Origin: a virus
Lineage: Duplodnaviria; Caudoviricetes
Strand: one strand, 5' to 3'
Virus record (IMG/VR): IMGVR_UViG_3300007553_000105
Span: 1-64,000 of that record
DNA length: 64,000 nt
Below are positions 2,980 through 37,733 of this stretch, in pieces. The notes beneath the pieces were generated by a model that was not told where the DNA came from, made no database searches, and worked only from the letters and a program-made list of their open reading frames with translations. Position 1 is the first letter of the stretch, and each line of letters opens with the position of its first letter. The position numbers and the translations under genes are program-made.

Positions 2980-3151
2980 CCTTACTCCATTCATGTATTG
3001 TATCATAATCAGCCGCTAGCTTTTGTAGTAGTGCAACCACTGCGTATACTGGTTCCATGTCACCAACATATCCTAGTTCATTGCGAATTGCGTCTTCATC
3101 TTCGCTGTGGTAAGCCCAGCTAACTGCTTGTTTAAACTTATCTGTGTTCAT
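2972..3151 (-). CDS. hypothetical phage protein
   Basis: TAATG overlap with the protease stop codon. Confidence 0.55.
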   Translation of the reverse strand: MNTDKFKQAVSWAYHSEDEDAIRNELGYVGDMEPVYAVVALLQKLAADYDTIHEWSKDD

Positions 3152-22956: not shown

Positions 22957-24388
22957 TAACTTCTTTCATGTTCTGGTAATTGTAAAAAATTCCATTTGGT
23001 GAGTCACCAGATAAGTATACGTCCTTATTTGTTTTTAACAATTCATTAATCAAATTAATAAAAGATGCCTGCGCTTGATGATGCGGGGTATTTAAATAAT
23101 TTGTTTCATATTGCCATATGTTGCTTACTTGTAGGAATACTGTTTGATCTGTACCTATTTCACTAACCACCTTATCCCACTCCTTGACTAAGTCAACAAG
23201 TAAGAATTTATGATCAAGTGAACGTATCCAGTTCCAATGATCTAACCATTCTTCTTCACTATTATAATGGTTCACAAATTTCTCTGCTAACTCTCTATCA
23301 TAATTTGCAGCTTCAAACGCAACAAAGTTTTTCTTTAAATAGGGACTGTATTTTAAATAAAACTCATGGAAGTTTTTACCATCCCAGTTTTCTAATAAAT
23401 TCTTTGTCCACCACATTCCAGCCTCACTGAAGTCTGTCCATATAACACGCTTCAATGTTTTTCTAGAATTAGTCATGTGTTTAAACTGATGCAACCCACT
23501 ACACGGAGCAGTCATGACTTCAAAGTTGTGTTCTTCAAAATCAGGAATACTTTCAGTATTGGTTATAAACATAACGTATGCTCGCATAACCTTTAATCCA
23601 TATAATTCCATTTTATCTTCTGGGATAATATTAGTGGAATAATTAGAAAGTATTTCTTCGTCTTGTTTGTCCCAGTCAAGATCTAAAAGCCAGTTTTCAG
23701 TATCTTCTACATCATCATCAGGGTAACAGCAATATTTGTGTTCTCTTACACTATAGGGCAAGTTATGTATCATTAAATTTTTTGATAACGCAATGGGAAT
23801 AATCGTTTGAAGATCGCCATATTCTACGTTTAACTGTCCTCTAGCAAAGACGCCTGGCGCTGGTTTTAAAAACGTAGGAGTATAGTCATCGTGTATATGG
23901 TTGTCACTTTGTGTATACATGGGGAAATCATCGTCCCAATCCATTAACATATCAGGCTGCCCAGTAGCGTTCCACTCATGTAGGTTGATAACAATGCATT
24001 GTTGATGTAATCTAGGAGCGTCTTCTATTGGACGTCTTGTTAATATATGTCCCGCAGCTAGCCAGCCAGTTTTGCCCCACACTTCATCGTATACATTAAG
24101 TAGCTGTTCCTCAAACTCATCATTCAATGGCCATGATCCTTCAAACCAGATAACCGCCAGTTCAAAATTCATTTCATATGCATTACGCAATAGCAAATTT
24201 AATCTACTAATATGATCACCGGTGAAAATAAAATGATGACAACTGTTAGTTAAATTTATTGCTGATGCTTTGCGCAATTTTGCTACATAGTCTACTCTAT
24301 CTGATATGTCCCCAATCAAAGAACCATTGAAGATCATGTGTGCAATACGATTGTATTGCCCCATTTTAATATAGGAGTTTTTGTACAT
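22943..24388 (-). CDS. hypothetical protein (481 aa)
   Basis: Long ORF; no confident family. Confidence 0.75.
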   Translation of the reverse strand: MYKNSYIKMGQYNRIAHMIFNGSLIGDISDRVDYVAKLRKASAINLTNSCHHFIFTGDHISRLNLLLRNAYEMNFELAVIWFEGSWPLNDEFEEQLLNVYDEVWGKTGWLAAGHILTRRPIEDAPRLHQQCIVINLHEWNATGQPDMLMDWDDDFPMYTQSDNHIHDDYTPTFLKPAPGVFARGQLNVEYGDLQTIIPIALSKNLMIHNLPYSVREHKYCCYPDDDVEDTENWLLDLDWDKQDEEILSNYSTNIIPEDKMELYGLKVMRAYVMFITNTESIPDFEEHNFEVMTAPCSGLHQFKHMTNSRKTLKRVIWTDFSEAGMWWTKNLLENWDGKNFHEFYLKYSPYLKKNFVAFEAANYDRELAEKFVNHYNSEEEWLDHWNWIRSLDHKFLLVDLVKEWDKVVSEIGTDQTVFLQVSNIWQYETNYLNTPHHQAQASFINLINELLKTNKDVYLSGDSPNGIFYNYQNMKEVISIL

Positions 24389-24399
24389 TGTATTCCTGT

Positions 24400-25128
24400 T
24401 TAAAGTTTAAATATAGTATCACGTGATGCGTTAGCGATAATTTCACGTGTACGATCAGTTTTTAATCCTGTTATTTGGATAGTTGAACGTGGATGGTTGC
24501 TTGCGTTAGCAGTAGCATGTGGAACGTTTGCCCAATCAAAAATATGTGCTTCGCCAGCACGCCAGCCACTATAAACATAATTACCATACATGTAAAACTG
24601 CCCTGGTTGCCAGTCATCCAACATGATAGTAATACGTGCAACACGCTCTGGATCTTCGGGGCAACGATCCCATAATTTATCAATATGTAGATTAAACATT
24701 TGTCCAGTTAACTGAACGTGGGCACGTTTTTTAATACCCTCTCCTGTCAGGCCAAAGTAATCTGCCATAGCATATAAGGTAGGAAACTGTTCAAGATCAT
24801 CACTCATATTTGTTAGCATTAATGCTTTAGGGTCGCCGCCTCCTTGAGCAATATCATATTCTTCCTGTGCAAGCATTGGAGATTTATCATCCCTGTCACC
24901 ATAAAATTTTCTAGTCTCCCAATTTATAGGCATACACGCTTTTACTAGTGCATCACGTTCTGCACTCCAATTGCCTTCAAAACGCCCTAGAATATCAAAC
25001 CAGTCACCTAGTTCATCATTGACATTGTTGTCAAAATGATATTCACTGTGTGCGACTGTCCAATCCCAATTGCTTTTATAGTTTACAGGATCTTGCAATT
25101 CCTTTCCCCAATTTGTATTATGTTTCAT
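24400..25128 (-). CDS. 2OG/Fe(II)-oxygenase-like cupin protein
   Basis: HID...PHATANAS...R (HxD...H facial triad). Confidence 0.7.
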   Translation of the reverse strand: MKHNTNWGKELQDPVNYKSNWDWTVAHSEYHFDNNVNDELGDWFDILGRFEGNWSAERDALVKACMPINWETRKFYGDRDDKSPMLAQEEYDIAQGGGDPKALMLTNMSDDLEQFPTLYAMADYFGLTGEGIKKRAHVQLTGQMFNLHIDKLWDRCPEDPERVARITIMLDDWQPGQFYMYGNYVYSGWRAGEAHIFDWANVPHATANASNHPRSTIQITGLKTDRTREIIANASRDTIFKL

Positions 25129-25129
25129 T

Positions 25130-25885
25130 TTATAAATCCTCTAATTTTATTATTGTATCTTTATTCATTTGACTTAGTAGCAGTCTGGTTCGGTCAGTAG
25201 CTAACCCCGTTATTTGTAAATTTGGTCTCATTATATTGCTGGCATTTGCAGTAGCGTGTGGCACATTGGCCCAGTCAAAAATATGTACATCTCCAGCTTT
25301 CCAATTTTTATAAACATAATTACCATACATAAAAAATTGTCCTGGGTGCCAATTATCAAGCATGACGGTTATTCTCACAATTTTACTAGGATCCTCGGGA
25401 TATATTTCCCATAAATTATCAACATGTAAGTTATACATCTGACCATTGGTCTGCATTATAGTTCTATATCCTGCATTTGCCTCTTTTCCCTTAGGGATGA
25501 CTATATCAAAATATCGTGCAACTTTGTTTATTAACGGGAACATCTCATGGCCATAACCGTGAAACATTGCTAGTGATACATAACTTTTAGAATAGTCGTC
25601 TTTACTTCCTGATTTTTTAGTTAGATGAAGATCGACTATCTGTTCATATGTTTCTTTGTAATAGTCTGGGTCATCTTCATAAGATCCTATTGATGAGGAC
25701 AGTCTTTCTACTTCAGCAGAAAAATCAAGATCAAATCTACCAAGCAAATCAAACCATTCACCAGGTTGATCTTGTATATTTTCGTCAAAGTGGTACTCAC
25801 TATTAATAGCACCACAATACCAGTTGCCTGTTTTACATGTATTGTCTGGCAGTAATTCTTTTTTCCAATTGGTATTATGCTTCAT
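25130..25885 (-). CDS. 2OG/Fe(II)-oxygenase-like cupin protein (paralog)
   Basis: HVD...PHATANAS...RP motifs. Confidence 0.7.
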   Translation of the reverse strand: MKHNTNWKKELLPDNTCKTGNWYCGAINSEYHFDENIQDQPGEWFDLLGRFDLDFSAEVERLSSSIGSYEDDPDYYKETYEQIVDLHLTKKSGSKDDYSKSYVSLAMFHGYGHEMFPLINKVARYFDIVIPKGKEANAGYRTIMQTNGQMYNLHVDNLWEIYPEDPSKIVRITVMLDNWHPGQFFMYGNYVYKNWKAGDVHIFDWANVPHATANASNIMRPNLQITGLATDRTRLLLSQMNKDTIIKLEDL

Positions 25886-26582
25886 TTAATATACTCCGTG
25901 TTTTTTCTGTCATCAATCCAGTCAGTTGTAACATTGGGCGTGGCGCATTGCTGGCGTTAGCAGTAGCATGTGGAGTATCACCCCATCTAAACACATGGGC
26001 GTCACCCGCCTTCCAGTCTTGATAATTATAGTTTCCGTAAATTATAAACTGCCCAGGAACCCAATCTTCTAGCATAACATGTATTCTTACTAATCTACTG
26101 TGATCTATATCTAAATTATACAGCCCCTCGTCTATGTGCATTACATACATGTTACCTGGAATTTGATAGTGTATTTTAACTCCGTACTTTCCAGTCAGTC
26201 CTGGTATATTTTCAGGATTATCGAAAAACTCTAAACCAAAGCTATGGACTAATTCGTAAAGTTTCGGGAACATATCAGGGCGTTCATAAAAATTAACGCA
26301 TGTCAGAGTTTTTTCAGCGTCTGTACCTTTGTTAACGTGTCTTGTTGTCTGGTTAATAAAATCTATATGTTCAAATTCAGGAGTGATTTCTTTTGGCTTT
26401 AAGTTTGGATTTTTTGATGTTATATATTTAGAATGAAGATAATTTAATTCTATATCGTAATGATTGTAAAAATTGCCAATAGTTTTAAACCATGGCCCAT
26501 CCGCAGTATCTTTTATATTGTTATTAAAATGGTATGCACTGTGTTTATACGGTACCTGCCAAAAATTATTTTCTCCGTCCAT
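25875..26582 (-). CDS. 2OG/Fe(II)-oxygenase-like cupin protein (paralog)
   Basis: HID...PHATANAS...RP motifs. Confidence 0.7.
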   Translation of the reverse strand: MDGENNFWQVPYKHSAYHFNNNIKDTADGPWFKTIGNFYNHYDIELNYLHSKYITSKNPNLKPKEITPEFEHIDFINQTTRHVNKGTDAEKTLTCVNFYERPDMFPKLYELVHSFGLEFFDNPENIPGLTGKYGVKIHYQIPGNMYVMHIDEGLYNLDIDHSRLVRIHVMLEDWVPGQFIIYGNYNYQDWKAGDAHVFRWGDTPHATANASNAPRPMLQLTGLMTEKTRSILNEA

Positions 26583-26587
26583 GCAAT

Positions 26588-26593
26588 TATTTA
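26588..26593 (-). promoter_or_regulatory. TAAATA late-type promoter box
   Basis: TAAATA 5 nt upstream of ATG 26582, directly after a terminator. Confidence 0.55.
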
Positions 26594-26595
26594 TT

Positions 26596-26623
26596 AAATG
26601 AAAATGGCGGCTTGCGCCGCCAT
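26596..26623 (-). terminator. intrinsic terminator after tctA
   Basis: ATGGCGGC-GCAA-GCCGCCAT hairpin followed by TTTCATTT. Confidence 0.85.
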
Positions 26624-26627
26624 CTTG

Positions 26628-28148
26628 TTATGTAAAGTCTATACCACGGTCTTTTCGTCTAAAGCTATTGATAAACAACAACACTGATATTACAAGTGCG
26701 CCAATAAAAATTGGATGTTCAGTGATGCTAAACAGTCTACTCCATTCAAAGTTTTCCCAACGTTTAGCGAATGTTTCACCCCAAGGCTGGTAACGATAAA
26801 CACGCAATGTCTGGAATAAGTAATCGTCAAACTTATCTGCTACAACAAACGCAACAAGAACTGCTGGACGACTAATACTACCAAACTTTAGGAAAATACC
26901 TAGTATACTAAAGATAGCAAGTAATGTTAAATCTTCCCAACTGTTTGAGTATTGTAGGTTAGCATATATGATTACAAGTACAATAAACGATGCATAAATC
27001 CAGTAGGGTACTTCCAGAATTTTAATAATCCATTTGTATAGTACAATACTTAACAGTGCAACGCCAATTGTTCCAAAAATATAACCAAACGCCATACTCC
27101 AGACAAACTCACGATCGTTTAGTAGTTGTACAGTGCCAATCTCCATACCAAAATACATTGCAATAGCCATAACCATTGCTGCAAATGGTGCTGCTGGAAT
27201 ACCAAACAGCATAGCTGGAATCATACTACTTACTTTTTGTGCATTGTTTGCACCTTCACAGCCCAGCAATCCAATAGGGTTGCCTTCGCCAAATGGAACC
27301 TCTTGTGGCTCTTTGTGTGCTGCTTTAGTTGCGCCGTAAGCAAGGAAGTCTCCTACTGCACCACCTACGCCTGGAATAAGTCCTGTAATGAATCCAATAA
27401 ATCCACCACGTAACATATCCCGCCAATGTTTTCTTACATCACGGAAGCCCCATTTAAGTTGATTCCAATAATCATCACTGGCTTTAGGAGGAACAGCTTT
27501 CGATCCTGCTTTTAATCCCCACAGTAGTTCAGGGATACCAAATAGTCCTGACAATAGTGCAATCATAAAGTGTGAACTTTCGCCTACACCAGCCAAGTAT
27601 TCCCACCCAAAAGTAAATCTTGGGTTACCAACTTGGTCTTGCCCTATTAGACCAATGAACAAGCCAAGAGCAATAGCAAATAAGCTAGTCCAGGGATTTT
27701 TACTTGCGACAAATCCAACACTTGCAAGTGCTAGTGTCATGAAGCCCAGTAACTCTGGACGTCCAAACTGTGTAACAATAATGCCGTAATATGGCAATAG
27801 TGTAAATGCTAAAAATGCATATAGCACACCGTTAACTGTGCTGTCTGCAATAGCAATGCCCATGGCACGACCAGCTTGGCCTTTCTTTGCCATTGGATAA
27901 CCGTCAATAACACATGCAGCGGTTGTGCTTGCGCCAGGAATACCTGTAAGAATACTGGTATAACTGTCAGCACTGGCACAACTTGCAATGATAGCTGTTA
28001 AAAAGACCAACCCCAAATAGGGGTCGGCCAAGAAATATGTACCCATGCTAAAGACAGTTATCAGGGCAGTAGTAACACCCGCAATTGGAATGATACCAAC
28101 TAGCATACCATAAAGTGTGCCAAGTATTGCCCAGATAACGTATTCCAT
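26628..28148 (-). CDS. tctA: tripartite tricarboxylate transporter large membrane subunit (TctA family)
   Basis: ILTGIPGAS, DGYPMAKKGQAGRA, RFTFG, EGANNA and GIP motifs; many TM helices. Confidence 0.88.
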   Translation of the reverse strand: MEYVIWAILGTLYGMLVGIIPIAGVTTALITVFSMGTYFLADPYLGLVFLTAIIASCASADSYTSILTGIPGASTTAACVIDGYPMAKKGQAGRAMGIAIADSTVNGVLYAFLAFTLLPYYGIIVTQFGRPELLGFMTLALASVGFVASKNPWTSLFAIALGLFIGLIGQDQVGNPRFTFGWEYLAGVGESSHFMIALLSGLFGIPELLWGLKAGSKAVPPKASDDYWNQLKWGFRDVRKHWRDMLRGGFIGFITGLIPGVGGAVGDFLAYGATKAAHKEPQEVPFGEGNPIGLLGCEGANNAQKVSSMIPAMLFGIPAAPFAAMVMAIAMYFGMEIGTVQLLNDREFVWSMAFGYIFGTIGVALLSIVLYKWIIKILEVPYWIYASFIVLVIIYANLQYSNSWEDLTLLAIFSILGIFLKFGSISRPAVLVAFVVADKFDDYLFQTLRVYRYQPWGETFAKRWENFEWSRLFSITEHPIFIGALVISVLLFINSFRRKDRGIDFT

Positions 28149-28158
28149 TAGCTGGTCC

Positions 28159-29220
28159 TTATTCTACAAGTTGTGGCTTGTAAACACTTGGGAAGCCGTA
28201 TGCTTCTTGGTTCCAGCGAACCGCAGCTTTTAGTGCATCCTCTGTGATTAGACCTTTCAAGAACTCTAGCATTGCTGGGCCGTCTTCACCTACGATCCAA
28301 GGATAGTCACCTGCAAGTGCTTTGATCTCTGCCATTGACTCTTCGTCTGCGAGCATTGCTTTTAGTGCTTCACGTAGCTTTTCAGTGTTTGGATTATCAC
28401 CACGTACCCAGAGTGATTTCTGGATAACGTCACGCCAGTTGCGTGTTAGTTTGTAAGCATCATAAAGTTCACCGGTTGGGTATTCACCCCATAGCTCTTT
28501 GTACTTTTCTTCAAACTGTGTACCAGGATAGTTTGGATCTTCAACTTGTTTGCCAGTTTCTAGATCTAGGATACCGTGTGTTAGCCATAGAACGTTGCCT
28601 TCGATATCTTTGTAGAACTTGTTCCATGCTGCTGGTGATTCACGTGCAACATCAAATTCACGGTTCATGAAACCTAGACGCTTCTCGCCGCCTGATACGC
28701 CGCTGATCCATACAGCACGTTCACGCCAGCAAGCTAGGTATGCATCAACTGAACCGCCGTCTGCTTGTGGACCGCAAAGCATCATTGCCATCGCAGCACC
28801 ATCTGGCTCAAAGCCTGAGCCGCCAGCAATACGCCATACGCCTGACTTTTCATCTGCGCCTTCGTGCTTGCCTAGTACGATATCGTTGTTGTTTGAACCG
28901 ATTAGGTCGTATTCGAAGTAGTTGTAGTCTACATCATCAAGTAGGAATGATACGCCGTTGCCGCCGTGTGCAACCATGATCATCTTATCATCGTTTTGTA
29001 GTTCGTTATGAAACTTGTTGAAGCCAGGAATATCACGTGCGCCTGGTTCATGGCGAACAACTACCTGTTCGTCTGTAAATTTCGAAAGGTTACGAGCAAT
29101 AATTTCTGCCCATACACTTGTACCTTTACCTGGTTCCTGTGGAACCACTAGGGTATAATCTGCCATTGCTGCTGATGCAGAAAGGGATAGAGCTACTGCT
29201 CCCATTAGAATTTTCTTCAT
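28159..29220 (-). CDS. periplasmic substrate-binding protein, TctC/Bug-like
   Basis: Signal peptide; LVVPQEPGKGT and HEPGA motifs; adjacent to tctA. Confidence 0.78.
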   Translation of the reverse strand: MKKILMGAVALSLSASAAMADYTLVVPQEPGKGTSVWAEIIARNLSKFTDEQVVVRHEPGARDIPGFNKFHNELQNDDKMIMVAHGGNGVSFLLDDVDYNYFEYDLIGSNNNDIVLGKHEGADEKSGVWRIAGGSGFEPDGAAMAMMLCGPQADGGSVDAYLACWRERAVWISGVSGGEKRLGFMNREFDVARESPAAWNKFYKDIEGNVLWLTHGILDLETGKQVEDPNYPGTQFEEKYKELWGEYPTGELYDAYKLTRNWRDVIQKSLWVRGDNPNTEKLREALKAMLADEESMAEIKALAGDYPWIVGEDGPAMLEFLKGLITEDALKAAVRWNQEAYGFPSVYKPQLVE

Positions 29221-29237
29221 TTTTCATCTCCTGTGAT

Positions 29238-29900
29238 TTATGAATTTTTCAATCGATTGTTTCTATCTGGTTGGCAACCTGCCAAGACGATATCGTCTAA
29301 CCAGTAATCTTCAATATACTTAATATACTTGTGATTTGCGTCTTTGTCAATAAATTTTAGAATTTCTGGATCATCCCATGCTACTGGAAAGTCTAGTATT
29401 TTACCTATCCATTTTAGATAGTGCTGTTTGTGAAGGAAAAATGCTTCATGGTCCACAAAGTTTACATCTAAATCAGACGCTAACAAAGTATTATAGTAAT
29501 AGTCTTGTGCAATAGGAGTAGTGTGCGCTTTACGCACTCGCAACTGTTGCATTTGATTGATATTCTGGTCTCTAACCACAATAGCAATCGTCACGTCAAC
29601 CCCAAAACTTTTCACTCGCTCTGCGACTTCTAAAATTTTAGGAACGTATCTAACTCCATCATAAAAGAAAGGACAGCTCACATTTGCCATATGATACTGA
29701 TGTGTTTCAAATATCTCCGGAGTTAGTAGTTCTGGGCGGACCCAGTATTCAGCAAAGGGTTCCTGATCACTCGGTACCCAATATTTATCTAGCAATTCTT
29801 CCCAGCCTGCTACCTCGGGGTGTTTGCTGAAAAGTCTGCTAAAGAGATGGTTACCAGACCCCTGTGGCCCGGTAACTATCAATAGTTTTTTATTTTGCAT
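29238..29900 (-). CDS. P-loop sulfotransferase-like protein
   Basis: IVTGPQGSGNHLF (5'-PSB-like) and IVVRD (3'-PB-like) motifs. Confidence 0.55.
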   Translation of the reverse strand: MQNKKLLIVTGPQGSGNHLFSRLFSKHPEVAGWEELLDKYWVPSDQEPFAEYWVRPELLTPEIFETHQYHMANVSCPFFYDGVRYVPKILEVAERVKSFGVDVTIAIVVRDQNINQMQQLRVRKAHTTPIAQDYYYNTLLASDLDVNFVDHEAFFLHKQHYLKWIGKILDFPVAWDDPEILKFIDKDANHKYIKYIEDYWLDDIVLAGCQPDRNNRLKNS

Positions 29901-30555
29901 GTCGTTGTTGGCCTACATATGTTCTAATCTTTAACGGGTTGACCTCATCAGTTGGGCCAGTGCCGCTGTCTGGTGCAAATACAAAGAGTAGCACGTCTTC
30001 ATCGTCAGTAATAAAATTATGCAGTTCATTACGTCTCATAAAGAATACCTCGCCTTCATTAATTGGAAACATTTCTTCGTTATCCAATTCCACTCTTCCA
30101 TTGCCTTTTAAAATCAATCCTATACGATGACTTGGGTGTGTATGCAGCGTTTGATACATGCCAGCTGGAAAGTGAACATAGTTAATAACTGGATCTCCTA
30201 GACGCCCAGGATTAATAGCTGTGCTATTACTACCGCCGTCCATGTATGTCAAGTTACCAATATCCATTTCTTCTTGGATAAAAATTCTACTTTCCAAAAA
30301 CCTTAGCCCAGGATAGTTGACAACAACTGCTGAACTGTCACTGTCTTTGCATCTTACTGTAAACTCACCATTGGCTACCATTATGGCAGCATTTGCTCTT
30401 TTTACAAGTTTATTTTCGTCTTCAAATTCAGAATTTCTAATTAGAACATAGTTTGTTCCAGGCTGGTTAAAAGTACGTGATTCGCCACTTTCCAGCTTTG
30501 TTAAATTTAACACCCAACGATCATTTGATATATATTCTTTTTTTACATTAATCAT
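29890..30555 (-). CDS. cupin-domain protein
   Basis: QTLHTHPSHRIG...GEVFFM..NELHNF metal-binding cupin motif; start could be 30585. Confidence 0.8.
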   Translation of the reverse strand: MINVKKEYISNDRWVLNLTKLESGESRTFNQPGTNYVLIRNSEFEDENKLVKRANAAIMVANGEFTVRCKDSDSSAVVVNYPGLRFLESRIFIQEEMDIGNLTYMDGGSNSTAINPGRLGDPVINYVHFPAGMYQTLHTHPSHRIGLILKGNGRVELDNEEMFPINEGEVFFMRRNELHNFITDDEDVLLFVFAPDSGTGPTDEVNPLKIRTYVGQQRHAK

Positions 30556-30574
30556 ATCTATATACTCGATGTGT

Positions 30575-30598
30575 GGGTTGCCCATTAATGAGCAACCC
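30575..30598 (-). other. stable stem-loop downstream of the ferritin-like gene
   Basis: GGGTTGCTCAT-TA-ATGGGCAACCC with no U-tract; probably an mRNA stabiliser or partial terminator. Confidence 0.55.
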
Positions 30599-30606
30599 CA
30601 AGCTGA

Positions 30607-31311
30607 TTACCAGCCGTATGCTTCTGCTACTAGTTCTTTAGCTTCTGCTACTGCCGCTGTGTTTGAGCAAGAAATCTGGAATAGATCCTTGCGCATTTGA
30701 TCAACTAATTCTAGGATACGAGCTTGCTCTTCACCTGTAACTGCTATCTTTGCTAGGCGTAGACCACCGATGTTTGCGTGGAAGCCTTCGTCTGCTGCAA
30801 TTTTAGCATATGCTTTTGAGATGTATGCGTCTTCGATGCATTCTGCCATTTCGTTCCATACTGCTTCAGCGCGGCCTTCTGCTACTAGCTGGTATGCTGC
30901 TAGAGCTGCTTTGTCGTCTGTTGCTTCGTACTTTGCTAGTAGAGCTGCGCCCTTAGCTGTTGGCTTTGCTGCCTCTGCCGCGATTGCTGCTTCAACATCT
31001 AGTTCTGTACCAGTGATGTGTTCGATAACGTCTTTTACCATCTTGAAGTGAACTGCTTCGTCTAGTGCTTGCTTTGTTAGTAGCTCTAGTTCTTCAGCTG
31101 GTGTGTTTGCTGGCATTGCAGCAATTGCAGCTGAAATTTCTGACATGTTCATGCGCTCGTTGACCATACGGCCTGTGAAGTGCTCTACTAGTTGTTCTTG
31201 TGATGGATTTGAATTAAAGTATGCACGTGTGTTCATACGTGATGCGTCGAATAGTGCTTTGTTCTCTGCTGTGATTTTTGCAACGAACTCTTTACCTGTT
31301 AGTGTTGTCAT
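30607..31311 (-). CDS. ferritin-like diiron protein
   Basis: E...DEAVH and E...DEGFH diiron ligand pairs; start MTTLTG after a GGAGA RBS; strongly biased codons. Confidence 0.8.
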   Translation of the reverse strand: MTTLTGKEFVAKITAENKALFDASRMNTRAYFNSNPSQEQLVEHFTGRMVNERMNMSEISAAIAAMPANTPAEELELLTKQALDEAVHFKMVKDVIEHITGTELDVEAAIAAEAAKPTAKGAALLAKYEATDDKAALAAYQLVAEGRAEAVWNEMAECIEDAYISKAYAKIAADEGFHANIGGLRLAKIAVTGEEQARILELVDQMRKDLFQISCSNTAAVAEAKELVAEAYGW

Positions 31312-31332
31312 GATGTTTCTCCATTCTATCAT

Positions 31333-31486
31333 AAAAAAAATAGTTCTATAAAACTTTGTTTTATAGTTTAAAAACATCTATACTTCTGTGAATTATAGAT
31401 GGGTCACACATAGTAACTCAATTGCGACTCCGCTTATTGACTGTGTGGCTCATCATATGATGATCGTCAGTAGAACTCTCTACTGC
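31333..31486 (-). ncRNA. candidate structured 5' leader / cis-regulatory RNA
   Basis: Five consecutive inverted repeats, the last two followed by U-tracts, directly after a TAAATA box (31492-97). Confidence 0.5.
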
Positions 31487-31509
31487 ATTATTATTTATGC
31501 CTCAGAAAA

Positions 31510-32055
31510 TTACATCAAAAGGGTTTGAACTTCTTTTGGCAAATATGGGTTTTTCATACGTTCAGGATGCCAAACTACTGCGGCCATTTTTCCTTCTATC
31601 CAAGATTCACAATAACCTGCGTAGTCTGTTGTTAATACTATTGCATTTTCAGGCGCTTTGTTTATGCACATAGTATGATAAGAGTTGACAACGTGTTCTT
31701 CTCCATTCGTATAAACACGATGAGATACGCCGTGATGATCTTCTATAATGCCTACCGCACCGCCATTTAGAGTTGTTAATAGAAAAGCACCGTGGCATAT
31801 TCCGACCACTGGCTTATTTAATAATAACATTTCTGTAGCCATACGTGTTTCAGTAATACGCCTAATATTAGGATCATTGCCACCAGTTAACACCAAAGCA
31901 TCTATCTTGTTTGCAAGTTGTTTGAAGTCCTGATCTATTCTATTAGGAATAGGTATTATTTCTTGGTCTTTAAAATAATGATACCAGGCTTGATCTGTTG
32001 AATCGTAAGCCTGGCCATTGTGATATATTACTCGTTGCGATAGTCCAACAATCAT
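31510..32055 (-). CDS. class I glutamine amidotransferase / peptidase C26 family
   Basis: LTGGND, GICHG, VNSYH and WHPE motifs. Confidence 0.85.
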   Translation of the reverse strand: MIVGLSQRVIYHNGQAYDSTDQAWYHYFKDQEIIPIPNRIDQDFKQLANKIDALVLTGGNDPNIRRITETRMATEMLLLNKPVVGICHGAFLLTTLNGGAVGIIEDHHGVSHRVYTNGEEHVVNSYHTMCINKAPENAIVLTTDYAGYCESWIEGKMAAVVWHPERMKNPYLPKEVQTLLM

Positions 32056-32735
32056 TTAGCTTTACGCCACACAAAATATATGCGGTTTAAATCTTTGCGA
32101 ATTGCAAGTAGTTCACAGTTTAATTGTTTAGCCATGTTACTAATAAAAACAGGGTCCCAATCATAAAAATTAATCCATTGACTTTCAGGAGCAGTATGCT
32201 GTTGCCCAGGGTTTACACGGAAATAAAGCACGCCGCCATCTTTTACAAGGTTTACTGCGGCAGTAAGTTCTTTAATAATTTTGTCACTGCTACCGAAGTT
32301 AATGCTACCCAAACAAATTGCTACATCATATTTGATATCTGTTACTTGGTATTCTAATACAGTAGCTTTTACGTCTGCACGATGATTATAAGGATCAATG
32401 CCAATTAAATTTTGTATCTTGCCTTTAAACTCATTGTATCCACATCCAATATCAATTACTGCCGTCGGATCCATTGCGTTAACTTCGTCAATAATAGCGA
32501 GTCCGCTATACTTGTATTTTTTTGTTTCAGGTTGCCATACTTTACTGAAGTATTTTGTTAAAACTTCATTGTCAATAATATCTGCTAGTTCTGATATACT
32601 AACCACTGGTGAGATATTATCTAATTCAATATCAAATACGCCGTTTACTACCTGGCATAGTGATAGCCTATCAGATTCAAGGCTAGGATTTCGTTTTAGA
32701 ATACGATCTAATTCGTTTAAAATTTTTAGGTTCAT
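32052..32735 (-). CDS. class I SAM-dependent methyltransferase
   Basis: VIDIGCG, GIDP and YDVAICLGSINF motifs. Confidence 0.8.
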   Translation of the reverse strand: MNLKILNELDRILKRNPSLESDRLSLCQVVNGVFDIELDNISPVVSISELADIIDNEVLTKYFSKVWQPETKKYKYSGLAIIDEVNAMDPTAVIDIGCGYNEFKGKIQNLIGIDPYNHRADVKATVLEYQVTDIKYDVAICLGSINFGSSDKIIKELTAAVNLVKDGGVLYFRVNPGQQHTAPESQWINFYDWDPVFISNMAKQLNCELLAIRKDLNRIYFVWRKAK

Positions 32736-32736
32736 G

Positions 32737-32934
32737 TTATGTCCATGTTAGTTTGAATAATAAAACAGCTTCGTCAGAAGGTAGTTGCAATACCATGCCT
32801 TCCAATATACTGCCGGGAAAATTAGTTGTCCATTCGTGAAGTTCTGTATAATGTTCTGCCCAGTAATGATAGTCACTCAGTATAACACACCGTGCTTTAC
32901 CATACTGAGTGACTACATACCGTTCTTTAATCAT
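32737..32934 (-). CDS. hypothetical phage protein
   Basis: Short ORF ending LLFKLTW. Confidence 0.6.
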   Translation of the reverse strand: MIKERYVVTQYGKARCVILSDYHYWAEHYTELHEWTTNFPGSILEGMVLQLPSDEAVLLFKLTWT

Positions 32935-33028
32935 AGATAAATGGGTCTTGGTCTTTTAGTTTTTTTAGTTTTTCAGCTAACCGCTTCTTATACTTGTAAT
33001 TGGCGATCCATTGCTTAATTAGTTTCAC
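32927..33028 (-). CDS. 33-aa basic peptide (MKLIKQWIANYKYKKRLAEKLKKLKDQDPFIYD)
   Basis: GTG start; exactly fills the gap after the carbamoyltransferase. Confidence 0.55.
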   Translation of the reverse strand: MKLIKQWIANYKYKKRLAEKLKKLKDQDPFIYD

Positions 33029-33032
33029 TGGA

Positions 33033-34568
33033 TTAAGTGTCATCTCGTGTTAATACCTTTACGTTATATTTCCGCGTCCAACGTTCAGCGTCATCCTCAT
33101 CATCCACCATAGGTTCGCCTTTAATGTTTAACGAAGTATTTAGTAACATTGGACATCCTGTTTGCGCATACCAGCGTTCCAGCAATTCGTATAATCCAGG
33201 ATGCTGTTCGCGTGTTACAGTTTGCACACGGCTTGTACCGTCCAAGTGCGTAATTGCAGGATATAAGTCAGGACGTTTACATGTCCCAATAAACTGCATG
33301 TATGGGCTATGGTTGCAACCCGCTGGCATGTCAAAATAGTCATGCACGTGTTCAGCCATAATTACTGGAGCAAAAGGTCTAAACTCTTGTCTACGCTTCA
33401 CAGTGTTAACAAGGTCTTTCATTTCCTGTCCTCTTGGGTCCGCTAACAAACTCCTATTACCCAGCGCACGTGGGCCGTACTCAGCTCTTCCATTTGCTAC
33501 CCCAACCATTCCTACTGTACTTAGTTCTTGCAGTGTTGCGTTTACAGGATAAGATCCTTTAATTTCATATCCCAAATATGGAGTAGTAAATGGAACGAAT
33601 TCTCTATTCCAATCCAACACACACCCTACTGCGCTACCAGCATCGCCAGGATTAGGCATGATCCATACATTATCAAAATACTTATATGCAAGACCATTGG
33701 CAACGCAATTTAGCGCACATCCGCCCATGATTACAATATTTTCGTCACCTACAATCTCTTTGGTTTTCATTACTAGGTAGTCAAATACCATTTCATAAAC
33801 AGCTTGTGTACTTGCCGCAATGTCTGCATAATCTTGTATTGTGTTTAGTTCTGGTGCCCACCATAAACAGCCGCGATGCAAGTTTTGCTTAAAGCGAATG
33901 TTTGGTGTCCCGTCAAATGGTTCAAAGAAATCGTCAAATATTTTTTGTTTATATTTCTCAGGATCACCCACCGCGGCCCATCCCATAAGAATATATTCTT
34001 CTTCATTGGGCTTTAAGCCAATGCGCTGTGTCATTGCGCTGTACCATAACCCAACACTGTGCGGATAGCTCTGACTAAACAGCTTGCGCATTTTTTTATC
34101 TTTACCGTGCCAGATAGTAAGCGTTTCAAACTCACCTATACTATCAATTACAAGTATGGCGGCATCGCGGAAAGGACTTGTATAAAACCCCGCGGCGGCA
34201 TGGCTGGCGTGGTGGCGGTGATTATGAAACATTGTTTGATTTTCACGATAATCGTCCATTAATAGCATACTATCACAAGCATCAATACCAAATTCGCTCA
34301 TTGTGGTCACTGGACTGGGTTTTGTCAATGCCAGCTTATATTGTCCACTTGTTAACTGACGCAACCGTTTTAACCACTGTGTTTCATACCAGTGTACTGT
34401 ATCAGGAAATCCAAATTCCAGTGCTTGATTAATTAGCTTCTGATTCAGGTGTTTGTCGTTCTTAACCCCACTACTACGTTCACTGTGTGCAGCAAATTTA
34501 ATTTCTTTATCTACGAATACTGCTATCGCAGCATCATGACTATTGGCTGTAATTCCCCATTGTATCAT
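33033..34568 (-). CDS. NodU/CmcH/TobZ-family O-carbamoyltransferase
   Basis: HDAA, HHASHAA, GGCALN, GDAG, GPRALGNRS, RPFAP and LNTSLN motifs. Confidence 0.93.
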   Translation of the reverse strand: MIQWGITANSHDAAIAVFVDKEIKFAAHSERSSGVKNDKHLNQKLINQALEFGFPDTVHWYETQWLKRLRQLTSGQYKLALTKPSPVTTMSEFGIDACDSMLLMDDYRENQTMFHNHRHHASHAAAGFYTSPFRDAAILVIDSIGEFETLTIWHGKDKKMRKLFSQSYPHSVGLWYSAMTQRIGLKPNEEEYILMGWAAVGDPEKYKQKIFDDFFEPFDGTPNIRFKQNLHRGCLWWAPELNTIQDYADIAASTQAVYEMVFDYLVMKTKEIVGDENIVIMGGCALNCVANGLAYKYFDNVWIMPNPGDAGSAVGCVLDWNREFVPFTTPYLGYEIKGSYPVNATLQELSTVGMVGVANGRAEYGPRALGNRSLLADPRGQEMKDLVNTVKRRQEFRPFAPVIMAEHVHDYFDMPAGCNHSPYMQFIGTCKRPDLYPAITHLDGTSRVQTVTREQHPGLYELLERWYAQTGCPMLLNTSLNIKGEPMVDDEDDAERWTRKYNVKVLTRDDT

Positions 34569-35026
34569 TGTTTTTTTATCCAAGTTAAGTTATTGTTATT
34601 AGCGTTGTCACCGCACACCCCAAATATTTCACCGCTGGGAATAGCGGGCGTAGGATGTCCTAATAAGTCCAACCATATAGCCCTATGATGCACTGGATGT
34701 ACTCCAGGGTAACACCACATAAATCCCATGTTGGTTAATGTCATCTTATCGTTTTCGTGCCAGAAACAATGGACACCGCCGTTGAGTAGCACTTGCATTG
34801 TTTCAATTGTTTTAGCATGGCAGAAGACATAAGGGCGTCCTATAAATTCCCAGTCAACTTGTTCTTGTGGTTCATCATGTCCAAAGTATAACGCACCATT
34901 ATACATTTGTAAATCACATTCCACGCCATAGCCTCCATTATAGGCTTCCTTTAGGTAATCTAGCCTATTCTCATAATCACGTTCAACTCCATAGTAGTTG
35001 CCGCGATGGGCGATAAAGATTGCCAT
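34565..35026 (-). CDS. glycerophosphodiester phosphodiesterase-like (PLC-like) protein
   Basis: IAHRGN, VECDL, GHD and HAK motifs. Confidence 0.7.
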   Translation of the reverse strand: MAIFIAHRGNYYGVERDYENRLDYLKEAYNGGYGVECDLQMYNGALYFGHDEPQEQVDWEFIGRPYVFCHAKTIETMQVLLNGGVHCFWHENDKMTLTNMGFMWCYPGVHPVHHRAIWLDLLGHPTPAIPSGEIFGVCGDNANNNNLTWIKKQ

Positions 35027-35085: not shown

Positions 35086-36120
35086 ATGCCAACATTTAAA
35101 TTTTACACCAATCCATCTGATAAAGCAAACAAATATGAAATAACAGCGAATTTAATTGGTCGCGATTGGGATTTTTCAGACGGAGAACAGAGTAAGGAAT
35201 TCAGCACACTGTATCGTAAATATTTATTAGGGCTTATATCTTCTCCAGAAGAAAAGTACTACAAATTTTTAAAGTCCACAATAGATAATTTTGAACTACT
35301 AAAAACATTTACTGCTGATACATCACCCCACCCATCTATTGCTAATAGAAACTGCGATACTTTTTTTGATAATACCGTTGGGATAGTTAATAGAGGTAAA
35401 AAGAAAACAATTATTGCACTAGGTGGCGGTAGTTGGTACAAGACATTATATAACTATGACGGATTAGATCACGTTGCTAGTTGGCTGTTTGATGAACGCG
35501 ATTCCGTTAACTATAACGTGATTAGTTTTAGAGAGCAAATAGAACGCTGTTATTACAATCCAGTATTATATGATAGCTGTTATTATAACGGTTGCCATGA
35601 ACAATTGACAACCCCACAGGCCATGGCTGCTTTTATTAAGCAACTGTTTCCAGACAATGAATATTATATATTTGGAGACTGTAAATTGGGGCACGCCACT
35701 GCATTACTTGCATATTATCTAGGAGCGAGTAAAATTTTTGTCAGTAGTGGCATCACTACAATGGAAATTGCTACACTGGACACATTCTTAAACAAAAACA
35801 ATGACGGGGACTATCATTTAAACGATTATCAGAGTCTAGGCGCATTCGAAGTATTATTGCGGGCAACTTATTTCTCAGACAATATCCCCTCACATTTAAT
35901 GACCACACAGAATATTATAAATCTAATGCCCAATAGTAAATTTATGTTTTACAATCATGAGCATGATATTCCAGAATTCAATGAACAATCAAAAATGGTC
36001 TCTTTGGCTTCAAACGTCAATATACATTATACTGACAATCAAAAATATTCTATTAATAATCATCACATCGTAAATTATTTACGAAAGCATAATATTGTTT
36101 TTGATTTCTTTAACGAATAG
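35086..36120 (+). CDS. hypothetical protein (possible alpha/beta-hydrolase-like fold)
   Basis: 344-aa ORF; GDCKLG could be a nucleophile-elbow variant. Confidence 0.65.
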   Translation: MPTFKFYTNPSDKANKYEITANLIGRDWDFSDGEQSKEFSTLYRKYLLGLISSPEEKYYKFLKSTIDNFELLKTFTADTSPHPSIANRNCDTFFDNTVGIVNRGKKKTIIALGGGSWYKTLYNYDGLDHVASWLFDERDSVNYNVISFREQIERCYYNPVLYDSCYYNGCHEQLTTPQAMAAFIKQLFPDNEYYIFGDCKLGHATALLAYYLGASKIFVSSGITTMEIATLDTFLNKNNDGDYHLNDYQSLGAFEVLLRATYFSDNIPSHLMTTQNIINLMPNSKFMFYNHEHDIPEFNEQSKMVSLASNVNIHYTDNQKYSINNHHIVNYLRKHNIVFDFFNE

Positions 36121-36814
36121 AATCTAGATAGGACAAGTAATCTACAGGAGTTCCTATTGCAGTATACTTGTTAACCATAGACAATTTAACAGGGTGGTCA
36201 TTCTGGATGGCATGGTTATATAATGGCGCCAAATAAAATTCACCATTGGTTAGTAGATTATTGTTAGCATAAAAATTATAAGCGTCCATAAATAAATCTC
36301 CAGATTTCCAATGATACAACCCTGTGTTTCTATATTTGCTTATTGGCTGCTTCTCAGCAATGCCATATACTTTAAAGTCTTTGTCGACACTGCTATAGCT
36401 ACTTTTTAAATCCCATTGCCGTTCTTCAGCTAGTACTACGCTTGCGTGTCGGGTGCTTGCTAGAAAATAGTCTTTGTTGTAGTCCAAAATAAAGTCACAG
36501 TCAATAGTCATCCATTCTTCACTGCGATATTCACTGTTGGCAATCACATACGCTGCACTTGTTGCTGCACCATTAGTATAATAATCTATGCTGTGTATTG
36601 TACCATCAACATACTGTGCTGGGTTGTATTGTTCAATGTGACTCTGCTGAAAGAGGAAATGATAACGTATCTTATCATTTTTATCAAAGTTTAAACTATC
36701 AAGTGCAGCAACAAACATTGGCTTACCAGCCACATCCAAAAAGGGTTTGGGAATATCTGAAAATTCTTTAAAACGACTTCCTTGTCCAGCGCATAACTGC
36801 AACACATTAATCAT
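36110..36814 (-). CDS. sugar-phosphate nucleotidyltransferase family protein
   Basis: AGQGSRF...PKPF, DCD, EKQPIS, NGEFY and GTP motifs. Confidence 0.85.
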   Translation of the reverse strand: MINVLQLCAGQGSRFKEFSDIPKPFLDVAGKPMFVAALDSLNFDKNDKIRYHFLFQQSHIEQYNPAQYVDGTIHSIDYYTNGAATSAAYVIANSEYRSEEWMTIDCDFILDYNKDYFLASTRHASVVLAEERQWDLKSSYSSVDKDFKVYGIAEKQPISKYRNTGLYHWKSGDLFMDAYNFYANNNLLTNGEFYLAPLYNHAIQNDHPVKLSMVNKYTAIGTPVDYLSYLDSIR

Positions 36815-37152
36815 TCTATATCTCTCCATTCACCTACCATTATTTTGTCATTTGGCAAGCTAGGCGTTTTAACGCACATTACATATGCTTCTTCAAGAAC
36901 CTCTGCATCCACTACTTCATACGCATCAAATACAAATATGTCTCCAGCCACCATAATGTTACCATTGATTCGCATTTTTCCACTTACCATAACATTGTAC
37001 TCTATAGCAGTTAATTGAAAATGTGGTGCTATATATTCGCCTGGCAGGTGATGCATTAGTGCAACTTCAAATTGATCTGTTTTGAAAAGTGCTGGTTCAA
37101 AATCACCAATGATCCAACCGCGTTTGTAATTTTTTATATGATCTATTTTCAT
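36811..37152 (-). CDS. small cupin protein
   Basis: GWIIGDFEP, EYN and KTPS..NDK motifs. Confidence 0.7.
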   Translation of the reverse strand: MKIDHIKNYKRGWIIGDFEPALFKTDQFEVALMHHLPGEYIAPHFQLTAIEYNVMVSGKMRINGNIMVAGDIFVFDAYEVVDAEVLEEAYVMCVKTPSLPNDKIMVGEWRDIE

Positions 37153-37733
37153 AATTTGTATATCTTTTTAATAGTATCTTCTACATCAAAAACTTCTATT
37201 ACACTTGCCCCTGTTGCACGAGCACATTGAATTCCCACCGGGCTGTCTTCAAATATAGCAGTAGTAGCTGGCGCACTGCCTGTATGTCGCATACAATCAA
37301 CAAATGTAGTTGTATCTGGTTTTGCTGGATAATCTGTGGCAGTGTTTACTTTGGTAAAAAATTTAGCAATTTGCATAATCTCTAAACTACGTTCAATAAA
37401 TGCGCTTGTGGCATTTGTGGCCAAACAGATTTTATAACCCTTTTTATACAGATACTCTATTGCATCGTACAAATCTTTTCTAAACGAAATATATTCAGGA
37501 ATATGTTGTTGAGTATGGGCTTGTTTAGCTTCATTTACTTTGTCAGGATTTAAATTAGCACCGTGAGCATTAAGTATTCGTATCTTTTCACGAGTAGGTC
37601 TGCCTTCAATATCTTCATCATCAAAATTTAGATCTGGAGCATATTTTTTAACCGCTGCACGGAAACCGTCCTGATGTAATTTCTTACAATCTGCTAGAGT
37701 TCCATCAAAATCGAATATTACAGTTTTTATCAT
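37149..37733 (-). CDS. HAD-family phosphatase
   Basis: FDFDGTL, ATN, KPD and FEDSPVG motifs. Confidence 0.9.
   Translation of the reverse strand: MIKTVIFDFDGTLADCKKLHQDGFRAAVKKYAPDLNFDDEDIEGRPTREKIRILNAHGANLNPDKVNEAKQAHTQQHIPEYISFRKDLYDAIEYLYKKGYKICLATNATSAFIERSLEIMQIAKFFTKVNTATDYPAKPDTTTFVDCMRHTGSAPATTAIFEDSPVGIQCARATGASVIEVFDVEDTIKKIYKL

Follow-up and report, generated by a model that had tools for sequence, protein, structure and literature searches.

A mosaic gene cassette of uncultured aquatic jumbo phages joining a predicted TctC/TctA uptake system to putative tailoring enzymes

The virus record IMGVR_UViG_3300007553_000105 (Duplodnaviria; Caudoviricetes) is a 95.8-kb linear sequence in IMG/VR, and its first 64 kb, hereafter the window, carry on the minus strand a run of genes for a ferritin-like diiron protein (FER), a cupin, a sulfotransferase-fold protein (ST), a TctC-like solute-binding protein, and the permease TctA. 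The locus is best explained as one jumbo phage's version of a mosaic auxiliary cassette that is common to hundreds of uncultured aquatic large phages. Judged against its relatives, the cassette in the window would extend from a methyltransferase gene (MT) to the last of three oxygenase paralogs (ox1, ox2, and ox3), spanning 24400-32735, and the five genes named above would be a lineage-specific juxtaposition of modules, because the transporter genes and the pair formed by FER and a glutamine amidotransferase (GATase) gene, here called GAT, occur apart in relatives. A first-pass annotation of the DNA had described the five genes as a self-contained operon, a claim that does not survive the comparison, since they are not inherited as a set.

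Distribution and modular make-up of the cassette

The comparison drew on 107 loci related to that of the window and on 10 large viral records, four of them at least 90% complete. Homologs of FER (60–80% identical) lie on 291 IMG/VR viral contigs, of which 80 loci were examined. GAT is adjacent to FER in 76 of the 80, MT is found in 66 (usually divergent), a homolog of the oxygenases (OX) in 53, ST in 50 (often as two copies), and the cupin in 17; TctA and TctC of the window type occur in 8. The 27 IMG/VR loci retrieved with TctA as the seed (about 70% identical) have the arrangement TctC–TctA–OX–ST with MT nearby in 24 to 27 cases, with TctA abutting the oxygenase gene, and none of the 27 has FER, cupin, or GATase genes within 10 kb. 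The same TctC–TctA–OX–ST arrangement with a nearby MT holds for a more distant relative whose TctA is 36% identical, and the nearest relative of the window, with an 88% identical TctC, keeps the identical order GAT–FER–cupin–ST–TctC–TctA. Conservation of the gene neighborhood, proposed earlier as a check, therefore gave a divided answer: the modules recur across phage loci, and the full five-gene set is not kept together. The genes that had been flagged as flanking, namely the GATase, methyltransferase, and oxygenases, turned out to be the most faithfully co-occurring partners. MT is the most widely co-occurring gene (87 of 108 loci), and FER and GAT are present or absent jointly in whole genomes.

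The features of the window locus are as follows.

32052..32735, minus strand: MT, a predicted class I S-adenosylmethionine (SAM)-dependent methyltransferase (motif I and acidic motif II residue; PDB profile matches)
31510..32055, minus strand: GAT, a predicted stand-alone class I glutamine amidotransferase or peptidase C26-type gamma-glutamyl hydrolase (Pfam; Cys-His-Glu triad)
31492..31498, minus strand: ATAAATA box upstream of FER, resembling a T4 late promoter (sequence motif)
31312..31491, minus strand: structured 5' leader of FER with five predicted hairpins (folding z = -4.4)
30607..31311, minus strand: FER, a predicted ferritin-like diiron-carboxylate protein (invariant ligand set)
29890..30585, minus strand: cupin with HxH...H metal motifs (Cupin_2)
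29238..29900, minus strand: ST, a predicted sulfotransferase-fold protein of 220 aa (AlphaFold2 (AF2) model and fold comparison)
28159..29220, minus strand: TctC-like periplasmic solute-binding protein of 353 aa with signal peptide (remote homology to Bug/TctC)
26628..28148, minus strand: TctA, large permease subunit of 506 aa (PF01970)
26596..26623, minus strand: intrinsic terminator (hairpin and T-run) between TctA and ox1
24400..26582, minus strand: three tandem paralogs, predicted 2-oxoglutarate (2OG)/Fe(II) dioxygenases (ox1 25875-26582, ox2 25130-25885, ox3 24400-25128)

Every element of the layout given in the first-pass annotation for 26596-31497, that is, the box, the structured leader, the five genes, and the strong terminator, is thus present on the minus strand, as are the GATase/C26 and methyltransferase genes that it placed upstream and the three oxygenase paralogs downstream.

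A binding protein, either TctC-like or a PF03401 TctC, lies inside the enzyme run in about 60 of the 107 loci. In 27 loci the cassette contains a solitary bona fide PF03401 TctC without TctA (for example L048:9252-10226, E 1e-16), which marks the binding protein as a recurrent element of the enzyme set; a solitary phage TctC of this kind presumably docks on a host permease. An adenosine 5'-phosphosulfate (APS)-kinase-like gene is found in 33 of the 107 loci, and a cytidylyltransferase-like gene is also recurrent. The two follow ST in many relatives (L003:13074-13499, L023:7440-7835, L039:10558-11412) and are fused in about ten. This pair looks like a minimal synthase for a donor of the 3'-phosphoadenosine 5'-phosphosulfate (PAPS) type; no APS-kinase-like gene was found in the 95.8 kb of the source phage. 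As read from gene content, the separable parts of the cassette would be FER with GAT; FER–cupin–ST; and TctC, with or without TctA, together with a 2OG oxygenase, ST, and MT, and often the APS-kinase-like and cytidylyltransferase-like genes. Clustering of all open reading frames (ORFs) in the 107 loci also brought out a recurrent unnamed 209-aa family that always stands ahead of OX and is not in the window. Comparison by hhalign of the unnamed cassette families c2, c6, c7, c24, c41, c21, c33, and c18 with the named ones gave nothing above 50% probability, and Pfam and NCBIfam scans of c2, c6, c7, c24, c41, c39, c21, c87, c82, c89, and c33 gave no match. In GenBank phage records (INPHARED), neither the DNA of 26000-32000 nor the proteins FER, ox3, and ST had a match; TctA did, at about 25% identity, in records that look bacterial.

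CheckV estimates the completeness of the source record at 27%, and the related complete or near-complete viral records measure 323–354 kb. The portal protein is 50–54% identical to the portals of phages Phosso, PA5oct, and Atu_ph07. PHROG matches to the portal, a T4-type baseplate wedge, and SbcCD-like nuclease subunits lie on the same contig, bearing out the earlier call of a phage, and a baseplate hub is also encoded there. Given the size of the relatives and the likeness of the portal to those of jumbo myoviruses, the source appears to be a fragment of a jumbo myovirus of about 350 kb. In most relatives the cassette stands beside PhoH and replication genes.

A scan covering one genome per prokaryote species found FER homologs, 65–68% identical, in the complete chromosome of Massilia atriviolacea SOD (NZ_CP051166.1, near 6.09-6.11 Mb, L115:8001-10209) and in Janthinobacterium sp. 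UMAB-56 (L116:8001-10223). In both islands FER, cupin (60–62% identical, with 62% in Janthinobacterium), and ST (59–60%) are contiguous and in window order, and a homolog of MT lies 3.5–6.5 kb upstream on the opposite strand. The islands have a GC content of 52–59% against 63–68% in their flanks. These flanks hold unrelated housekeeping genes, different ones in each genome, with no glycan or phage context. Neither the Massilia nor the Janthinobacterium genome has the cassette OX or an orthologous GATase. That FER–cupin–ST stands as an island without OX or GATase suggests a portable unit, which presumably works on its own in a cell. The islands point to gene exchange between phages and bacteria and to a possible experimental system; they lie in named genome records, one a complete chromosome, and may therefore offer a cultured system. 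Cassettes of the phage type were also seen in two binned contigs, CALCPD010000071.1 of a Nitrosopumilaceae metagenome-assembled genome (MAG) (L114; 33% GC; cupin–ST–FER–GAT) and FZLS01000101.1 of a Rhodobacteraceae bin (L117; 38% GC; FER–GAT–cupin); these are probably phage contigs mis-binned into MAGs.

Predicted protein families and their known relatives

The gene identities proposed in the first-pass annotation all hold, with "sulfotransferase-like" to be read at the level of the fold and "TctC" as a remote homology. TctA matches PF01970 with an E-value of 2e-87 (293.8 bits against a cut-off of 28.9 bits) over model positions 2–422 of 423. A TctA–TctB fusion was considered and rejected, as the length of 506 aa matches that of Salmonella TctA (504 aa). 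The TctC-like protein has a signal peptide that ends at AMA, followed by DYT, and has no Pfam match at E ≤ 0.01, PF03401 included. When its family profile was run against the PDB, the top four matches were all Bug/TctC proteins (BugD, E 0.012; BugE; 4x9t; Bug27; E 0.012 to 1.1). In hhalign comparisons it aligned to the PF03401-positive phage TctC family with a probability of 97.2% (E 4e-11, 118 N-terminal columns) and to Salmonella TctC with a probability of 54%. Its gene always adjoins TctA. The Bug-only top PDB matches, the hhalign link to the PF03401 family, and the constant TctA neighbor together argue that the 353-aa protein is a divergent TctC-type receptor. The family comprises 979 homologous metagenome clusters, all unnamed, with an Atlas assignment of 99% viruses. 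Single-sequence PDB searches with the TctC-like protein, FER, and ST returned nothing meaningful.

The closest described systems for this part of the cassette are the tripartite tricarboxylate transporters (TTT; TC 2.A.80; Salmonella enterica TctCBA; Bordetella BugD, BugE, and Bug27), with which it shares a full-length PF01970 permease, an adjacent binding protein with a signal peptide, and the order binding protein to permease. The phage system differs in several respects. TctB (PF07331, a weak model) was not detected in the locus, in the 95.8-kb contig (about 27% of the genome), or in the relatives G003, G001, and G002, complete genomes among them, and no small ORF for a membrane protein lies next to TctC and TctA or in the gap between them. 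The binding protein family is almost only viral and is missed by PF03401. Finally, the genes are phage-encoded and linked to tailoring enzymes instead of the TctDE regulator. The cassette also bears on whether a TTT permease can function without TctB. Roux et al. (2014, PMC4164917) counted tctA among the putative auxiliary metabolic genes of SUP05 viral contigs and gave its role as unknown, and the gene is listed again in PMC6359870. Those contigs, from uncultured marine phages, share with the present locus a TctA domain, noted together with 2OG-Fe(II) oxygenase genes, but the report is a domain match only, without a binding protein, a cassette, or a distribution. This was the only mention that the searchable literature gave, and no published description of the cassette was found, in keeping with the earlier statement that no system with this layout had been described. 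A comparative review of jumbo phages (PMC7824862) has no mention of sulfotransferase, TctA, tricarboxylate, carbamoyltransferase, ferritin, or phosphoramidate. New in the present analysis are the whole-genome evidence for separable FER/GAT and transporter modules, a virus-specific TctC-like family linked to PF03401, the argument given below against a phosphoramidate route, and the FER–cupin–ST islands in named Oxalobacteraceae.

FER is predicted to be a ferritin-like diiron-carboxylate protein. The ligands E52, E85, H88, E145, E175, and H178 (E/ExxH/E/ExxH) are all invariant in 20 homologs, whose mean column identity is 76%. Weak Pfam matches fall in the ferritin clan only (R2 in 16 of the 20, Ferritin_2 in 11, AurF in 7, DUF455 in 6, and PaaA in 5); the best E-values are 1.7e-3 for AurF and 1.1e-3 for R2, all under the gathering scores, and a profile search of the PDB gave only chance-level matches. 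The ligand set and the helical protein of about 230 aa are shared with the ferritin-like diiron oxygenases (AurF/CmlI, R2-like, PaaA, DUF455), but FER lies under every family threshold and is invariably paired with a C26 GATase, and we know of no described diiron enzyme with such a pairing. The start codon was placed at the ATG at 31311 because 60 relatives measure 229–233 aa; an alternative start at 31377 was rejected, as homologs are about 232 aa long.

GAT matches the Pfam families GATase (E 2e-11) and Peptidase_C26 (E 3e-11), both above their cut-offs, and its Cys-His-Glu triad (C87, H163, and E165, in GxCHG and WHPER) is invariant across homologs. The best NCBIfam match is gamma-glutamyl-CDP-amidate hydrolase (NF045546; E 1e-16), at 61 bits against a 250-bit cut-off and 32 bits for the next family. 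FER and GAT would form a tightly conserved, highly expressed second pair, for which one possibility is an N-oxygenase acting on an amine that is delivered or unmasked by GAT. The cupin matches Cupin_2 (E 1e-9) and is found in 17–19 phage loci, always beside ST. In MT, motif I (VLDVGCG) and the acidic residue of motif II are invariant in 16 homologs; its weak PDB profile matches are SAM methyltransferases in six of six cases, and the Pfam match to Methyltransf_23 is weak (E 3e-3).

ST was assigned through its AF2 model, which has a predicted local distance difference test (pLDDT) score of 88. When the model was compared by VIA-align with 48,161 representative chains, the top 10 matches were all sulfotransferases (Z 9.7–11.6; P-loop kinases Z ≤ 9.7), among them the OLS/CurM-type sulfotransferase, TPST1/2, NDST, 3-OST, and Stf, and Foldseek returned a mixture of TPST (E 7e-5) and adenylate kinase. 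By this fold-level comparison the term "sulfotransferase-like" appears correct. The P-loop, GPQGSGNH, is invariant and has no Lys or Arg, with a Gly at the position of the TPST Arg when aligned by eye, and an invariant RD...QQxRxR stands downstream at the expected place of the 3'-phosphate motif (RxxxxxxS). None of the top 120 homologs has a Pfam domain, and the family, with at least 3031 clusters, is unnamed throughout. The best structural match is the sulfotransferase domain of CurM and olefin synthase (4gbm, 4gox; Z 11.6, 173 aligned residues). CurM and olefin synthase sulfate a hydroxyl that has just been formed and so turn it into a leaving group, which would make sense of an oxygenase beside ST; however, the identity is 8%, the match is one of fold only, and the phage ST is a free-standing protein of 220 aa and not a polyketide synthase (PKS) domain.

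The three downstream paralogs are predicted 2OG/Fe(II) dioxygenases. They have no Pfam match, and an OX profile search of the PDB gave only chance-level matches. The AF2 model of ox3 (pLDDT 91) has 249 Foldseek matches at E ≤ 1e-3, led by L-proline cis-4-hydroxylase (4p7w, E 4e-6), proline 3-hydroxylase (1e5r), AspH, and P4H; the closest OX structures are hydroxylases of free proline and pipecolate. In 14 homologs the HxD...H triad with its Arg is kept, with H148 and D150 invariant and H204 and R214 conserved at 90% or more. The identity of ox3 to the TctA-adjacent oxygenase in the loci of 21 relatives is 58–73%, against 34–43% for ox1 and ox2, and by this measure ox3 would be the ortholog of the oxygenase that follows TctA in relatives.

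Candidate functions of the cassette

The constant company of a TctC-type receptor, with or without TctA, and oxygenases, an ST-fold enzyme, and methyltransferases suggests a scheme of import and tailoring. We tentatively favor, at somewhat less than even chances, the view that a small anionic solute is imported and then oxidized, sulfated, and methylated. The import of a precursor, one of the functions put forward in the first-pass annotation, thus stays plausible. An abundant periplasmic TctC-like receptor would capture the solute, probably a carboxylate or an amino-acid-like compound, and TctA would carry it across the inner membrane, either as a two-part system or with a borrowed host TctB. 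In the cytoplasm the solute would be hydroxylated or oxidized by the proline-hydroxylase-like 2OG/Fe(II) dioxygenases and by the diiron FER with the cupin. ST would transfer sulfate or a similar group from a 3'-phospho-nucleotide donor, the SAM methyltransferase would methylate the solute, and the C26 GATase, the obligate partner of FER, would remove a gamma-glutamyl group or supply ammonia. The protein families (to the level of fold or superfamily), the co-occurrence of modules, the expression signals, and the lack of a TctB match rest on direct observation; the action of the modules on one imported compound, the order of the steps, the donor, and the purpose of the product are parts of the scheme that we infer. 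The APS-kinase-like and cytidylyltransferase-like genes that follow ST in relatives fit a self-supplied PAPS-type donor. BugD and BugE bind aspartate and glutamate, and the likeness of the receptor to these proteins, together with that of OX to free-amino-acid hydroxylases, gives weak hints that fit an amino-acid-like substrate.

Comparable combinations are known from the tailoring sets of cylindrospermopsin (CyrI/CyrJ/CyrN), saxitoxin (SxtN/SxtO/SxtI), and Nod factors (NodH/NodPQ/NodS/NodU), in which a sulfotransferase goes with an APS kinase. The phage cassettes have the same combination of a hydroxylase, a PAPS-type transferase, an APS-kinase-like gene, and a methyltransferase, with a carbamoyltransferase nearby in the window. 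They differ in having no scaffold-building enzyme, no sequence-level kinship, and an atypical ST P-loop, and in being phage-borne and joined to an importer.

Several observations weigh against import and tailoring of one solute. The complete 342.6-kb genome G003, which has terminal repeats, carries the transporter module without FER or GATase, and so does another, 90%-complete genome; the same whole-record search detected FER in five of the five FER-bearing records that served as a positive control. Conversely, the 98%-complete, 354-kb genome G006 has FER–GAT–TctC–OX–ST and no TctA. Because G003 and G006 show the modules to be separable, these may serve different pathways that share only a hypervariable region. 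Within the window a terminator splits TctA from the oxygenases. The homology of the TctC-like protein is confined to the N-terminal lobe. In the ST family the Lys/Arg that sulfotransferases conserve in their 5'-phosphosulfate loop is missing, and the family has no match in Pfam (Sulfotransfer_1 to _5 included) or NCBIfam, to PDB sequences, or in any meaningful profile comparison. Lastly, many genes of the wider window are of the sugar-nucleotide, glycosyltransferase, carbamoyltransferase, and radical SAM kinds, a setting that would suit the decoration of a glycan or another macromolecule equally well.

Decoration of a macromolecule is the alternative to which this last point leads, and we consider it unlikely while still giving it serious weight. 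The enzymes would tailor a glycan, a virion protein, a host envelope polymer, or the phage DNA, in the manner of NodH/NodS/NodU, and TctC/TctA would be an unrelated uptake pair or would feed in a precursor. Around the cassette lie genes for a carbamoyltransferase, a sugar-1-phosphate nucleotidyltransferase, a haloacid dehalogenase-type (HAD) protein, an epimerase, a UDP-glucose dehydrogenase-like protein, and a glycosyltransferase. Tyrosylprotein and heparan sulfotransferases are among the fold matches of ST, the protein hydroxylases AspH and P4H are among those of OX, and the transporter and enzyme modules are separable. The late-type promoter box of FER points the same way, as late timing suits modification of virions or DNA. 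However, the binding protein stands within the enzyme run in more than half of the loci, and TctA abuts an oxygenase gene in relatives. Moreover, the cassette neighbors in most relatives are PhoH and replication genes rather than glycan genes, and the Massilia and Janthinobacterium islands have neither a glycan nor a phage setting.

Scavenging of nutrients is another possibility, which we rate as quite improbable. Here, boosted uptake of an abundant dissolved organic acid and its oxidative breakdown, by 2OG and diiron oxygenases and then the C26 hydrolase, would free N, S, or P for virions. The high-expression signals of the binding protein are consistent with such a role, and the TctC genes that stand alone, with no permease, are reminiscent of phage PstS, a protein that docks on host transporters. 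Oxidative C–P cleavage of the PhnY*/PhnZ type pairs a 2OG oxygenase with a diiron oxygenase, and the cassette repeats this logic, but the fold of FER is ferritin-like and not the HD-domain of PhnZ. Catabolism would also leave the sulfotransferase-fold enzyme, the APS-kinase-like kinase, and the methyltransferases unexplained, although these are among the most constant members.

A phage-borne biosynthetic route, in which FER, GAT, cupin, ST, and MT would act during infection on an imported acid resembling an amino acid and yield a reactive small molecule, N-oxygenated and/or sulfated, such as a toxin, signal, or metallophore, seems a slender prospect, with a probability close to that of scavenging. 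If true, hundreds of aquatic jumbo phages would be spreading a natural-product pathway that Oxalobacteraceae also possess. The strong version of the first-pass annotation, in which a diffusible signal or metallophore is made and then re-imported through TctC/TctA, is in our estimate very unlikely. The combination of a diiron N-oxygenase, a cupin, and a methyltransferase is the logic of N-nitroso and diazeniumdiolate biosynthesis, of which SznE/SznF and the fragin ham genes are examples, and 7 of the 20 FER homologs have weak AurF matches. Against it, FER is not an AurF member at Pfam thresholds, and the 107 loci showed neither an exporter nor a scaffold-forming enzyme (non-ribosomal peptide synthetase, PKS, or siderophore synthetase). 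A lytic infection would, in addition, allow little time for a cycle of secretion and recapture.

We also weighed a route resembling that of O-methyl phosphoramidate (MeOPN). In this route GAT would act as Cj1417, the APS-kinase-like protein as Cj1415, and the nucleotidyltransferase as Cj1416 to produce a PAPS-like 3'-phospho-CDP-amidate donor, from which ST would transfer phosphoramidate before methylation by MT. Its attractions are the NCBIfam assignment of GAT (61 bits, against 32 for the next family), the APS-kinase-like and cytidylyltransferase-like genes of relatives, and the absence from ST of the sulfate-contacting Lys/Arg. The GAT score is, however, far under the 250-bit cut-off, and ST and the APS-kinase-like and cytidylyltransferase-like genes occur in complete or near-complete genomes without any GAT, so that the donor cannot depend on GAT. 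GAT instead tracks FER, which has no part in the MeOPN pathway. Furthermore, a glutamine-kinase (Cj1418-like) gene was not seen in any locus, and the 95.8 kb of the source phage are without an APS-kinase-like gene. On this co-occurrence, with the kinase and ST in complete genomes that lack GAT, the full MeOPN enzyme set (Cj1415-Cj1420) was rejected, and a pathway resembling it is highly improbable.

Phage auxiliary genes are usually single enzymes or pieces of known pathways. In the present case an uptake system recurs jointly with five enzyme families that Pfam does not recognize with confidence, in hundreds to thousands of uncultured aquatic phage contigs. If import and tailoring is the correct reading, the identity of the solute would reveal which dissolved compound large phages make their hosts import and transform. 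It would also give a function to large unnamed families: that of the binding protein has at least 979 clusters and that of ST at least 3031, and FER is found on 291 viral contigs.

Expression signals and genomic surroundings

The effective number of codons, computed for 82 ORFs of the contig, is lowest for FER (29.4) and third lowest for the TctC-like protein (34.9), compared with 39.5 for the portal and a median of 46.5. The strong codon bias noted earlier for the ferritin-like gene and tctC is thus confirmed, and by this measure FER and the binding protein would rank with the most strongly expressed products of the contig. The ATAAATA box at 31492-31498 lies 11 nt past the GATase stop codon and is invariant in the two closest relatives, L033 and L034. 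Among 62 distinct upstream regions of FER homologs, 40 have ATAAATA 25–140 nt ahead of the start codon, and many of the others have GTAAATA or CTAAATA in the corresponding position. For the exact T4 late box, TATAAATA, the window shows no excess (3 observed against 8.4 expected).

The leader between box and gene (31312-31490, 179 nt) folds with -43.9 kcal/mol (z = -4.4), and none of 200 shuffled sequences was equally stable. Compensatory changes in the two relatives affect 8 of the 33 predicted pairs, a comparison of only three sequences. A scan of 24000-33500 with Rfam found no family, its sole match being SorX at chance level (E 0.52). FER may have a late-type promoter of its own, with the structured leader between promoter and gene, the roles as promoter and attenuator being read from these motifs. 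Within the leader, a 9-bp, AU-rich hairpin at 31375-31401 (minus strand) is followed by UUUUU, is conserved with compensatory changes in L033 and L034, and looks like a transcription attenuator ahead of FER. Directly past the FER stop codon, at 30575-30598 (minus strand), stands a 7-bp hairpin without a T-run; the cupin start codon is in its loop and the preceding G-rich stretch in its stem, and it could reduce translation of the cupin relative to FER or stabilize the FER message.

The terminator past TctA consists of an 8-bp hairpin with six G–C pairs and a GCAA loop (26604-26623), followed by TTTTCATT at 26596-26603. It seems to be specific to this lineage, since in relatives TctA abuts or overlaps the oxygenase gene without a gap. 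Elsewhere in the cassette the genes are closely packed, with overlaps of 4 nt between the MT stop and the GAT start and of 11 nt each for cupin/ST and ox1/ox2, and with 10 nt between TctC and TctA; the overlaps suggest translational coupling.

Upstream of the cassette are genes for a NodU/CmcH-type carbamoyltransferase (33033-34583), a sugar-1-phosphate nucleotidyltransferase-like protein (36110-36829), and a HAD phosphatase (37149-37733), and the same three genes also lie upstream of it in L033 and L034. Radical SAM genes, of which five were scanned, are close to the cassette at 39753-44663 and 15857-17904; they include a B12-binding one (39753-41825) and a SPASM-type one (41807-43036), and homologs are occasionally found near FER in relatives. 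Farther away, the window encodes an 894-aa subtilase (S8) at 3151-5835 and, in a row at 8545-11377, GTP cyclohydrolase I, an NAD-dependent epimerase, and a weak GT1-type glycosyltransferase. Beside the baseplate genes, a single ORF of 3503 aa lies in the region formed by 57740-64000 of the window and its continuation to L001:741-11252.

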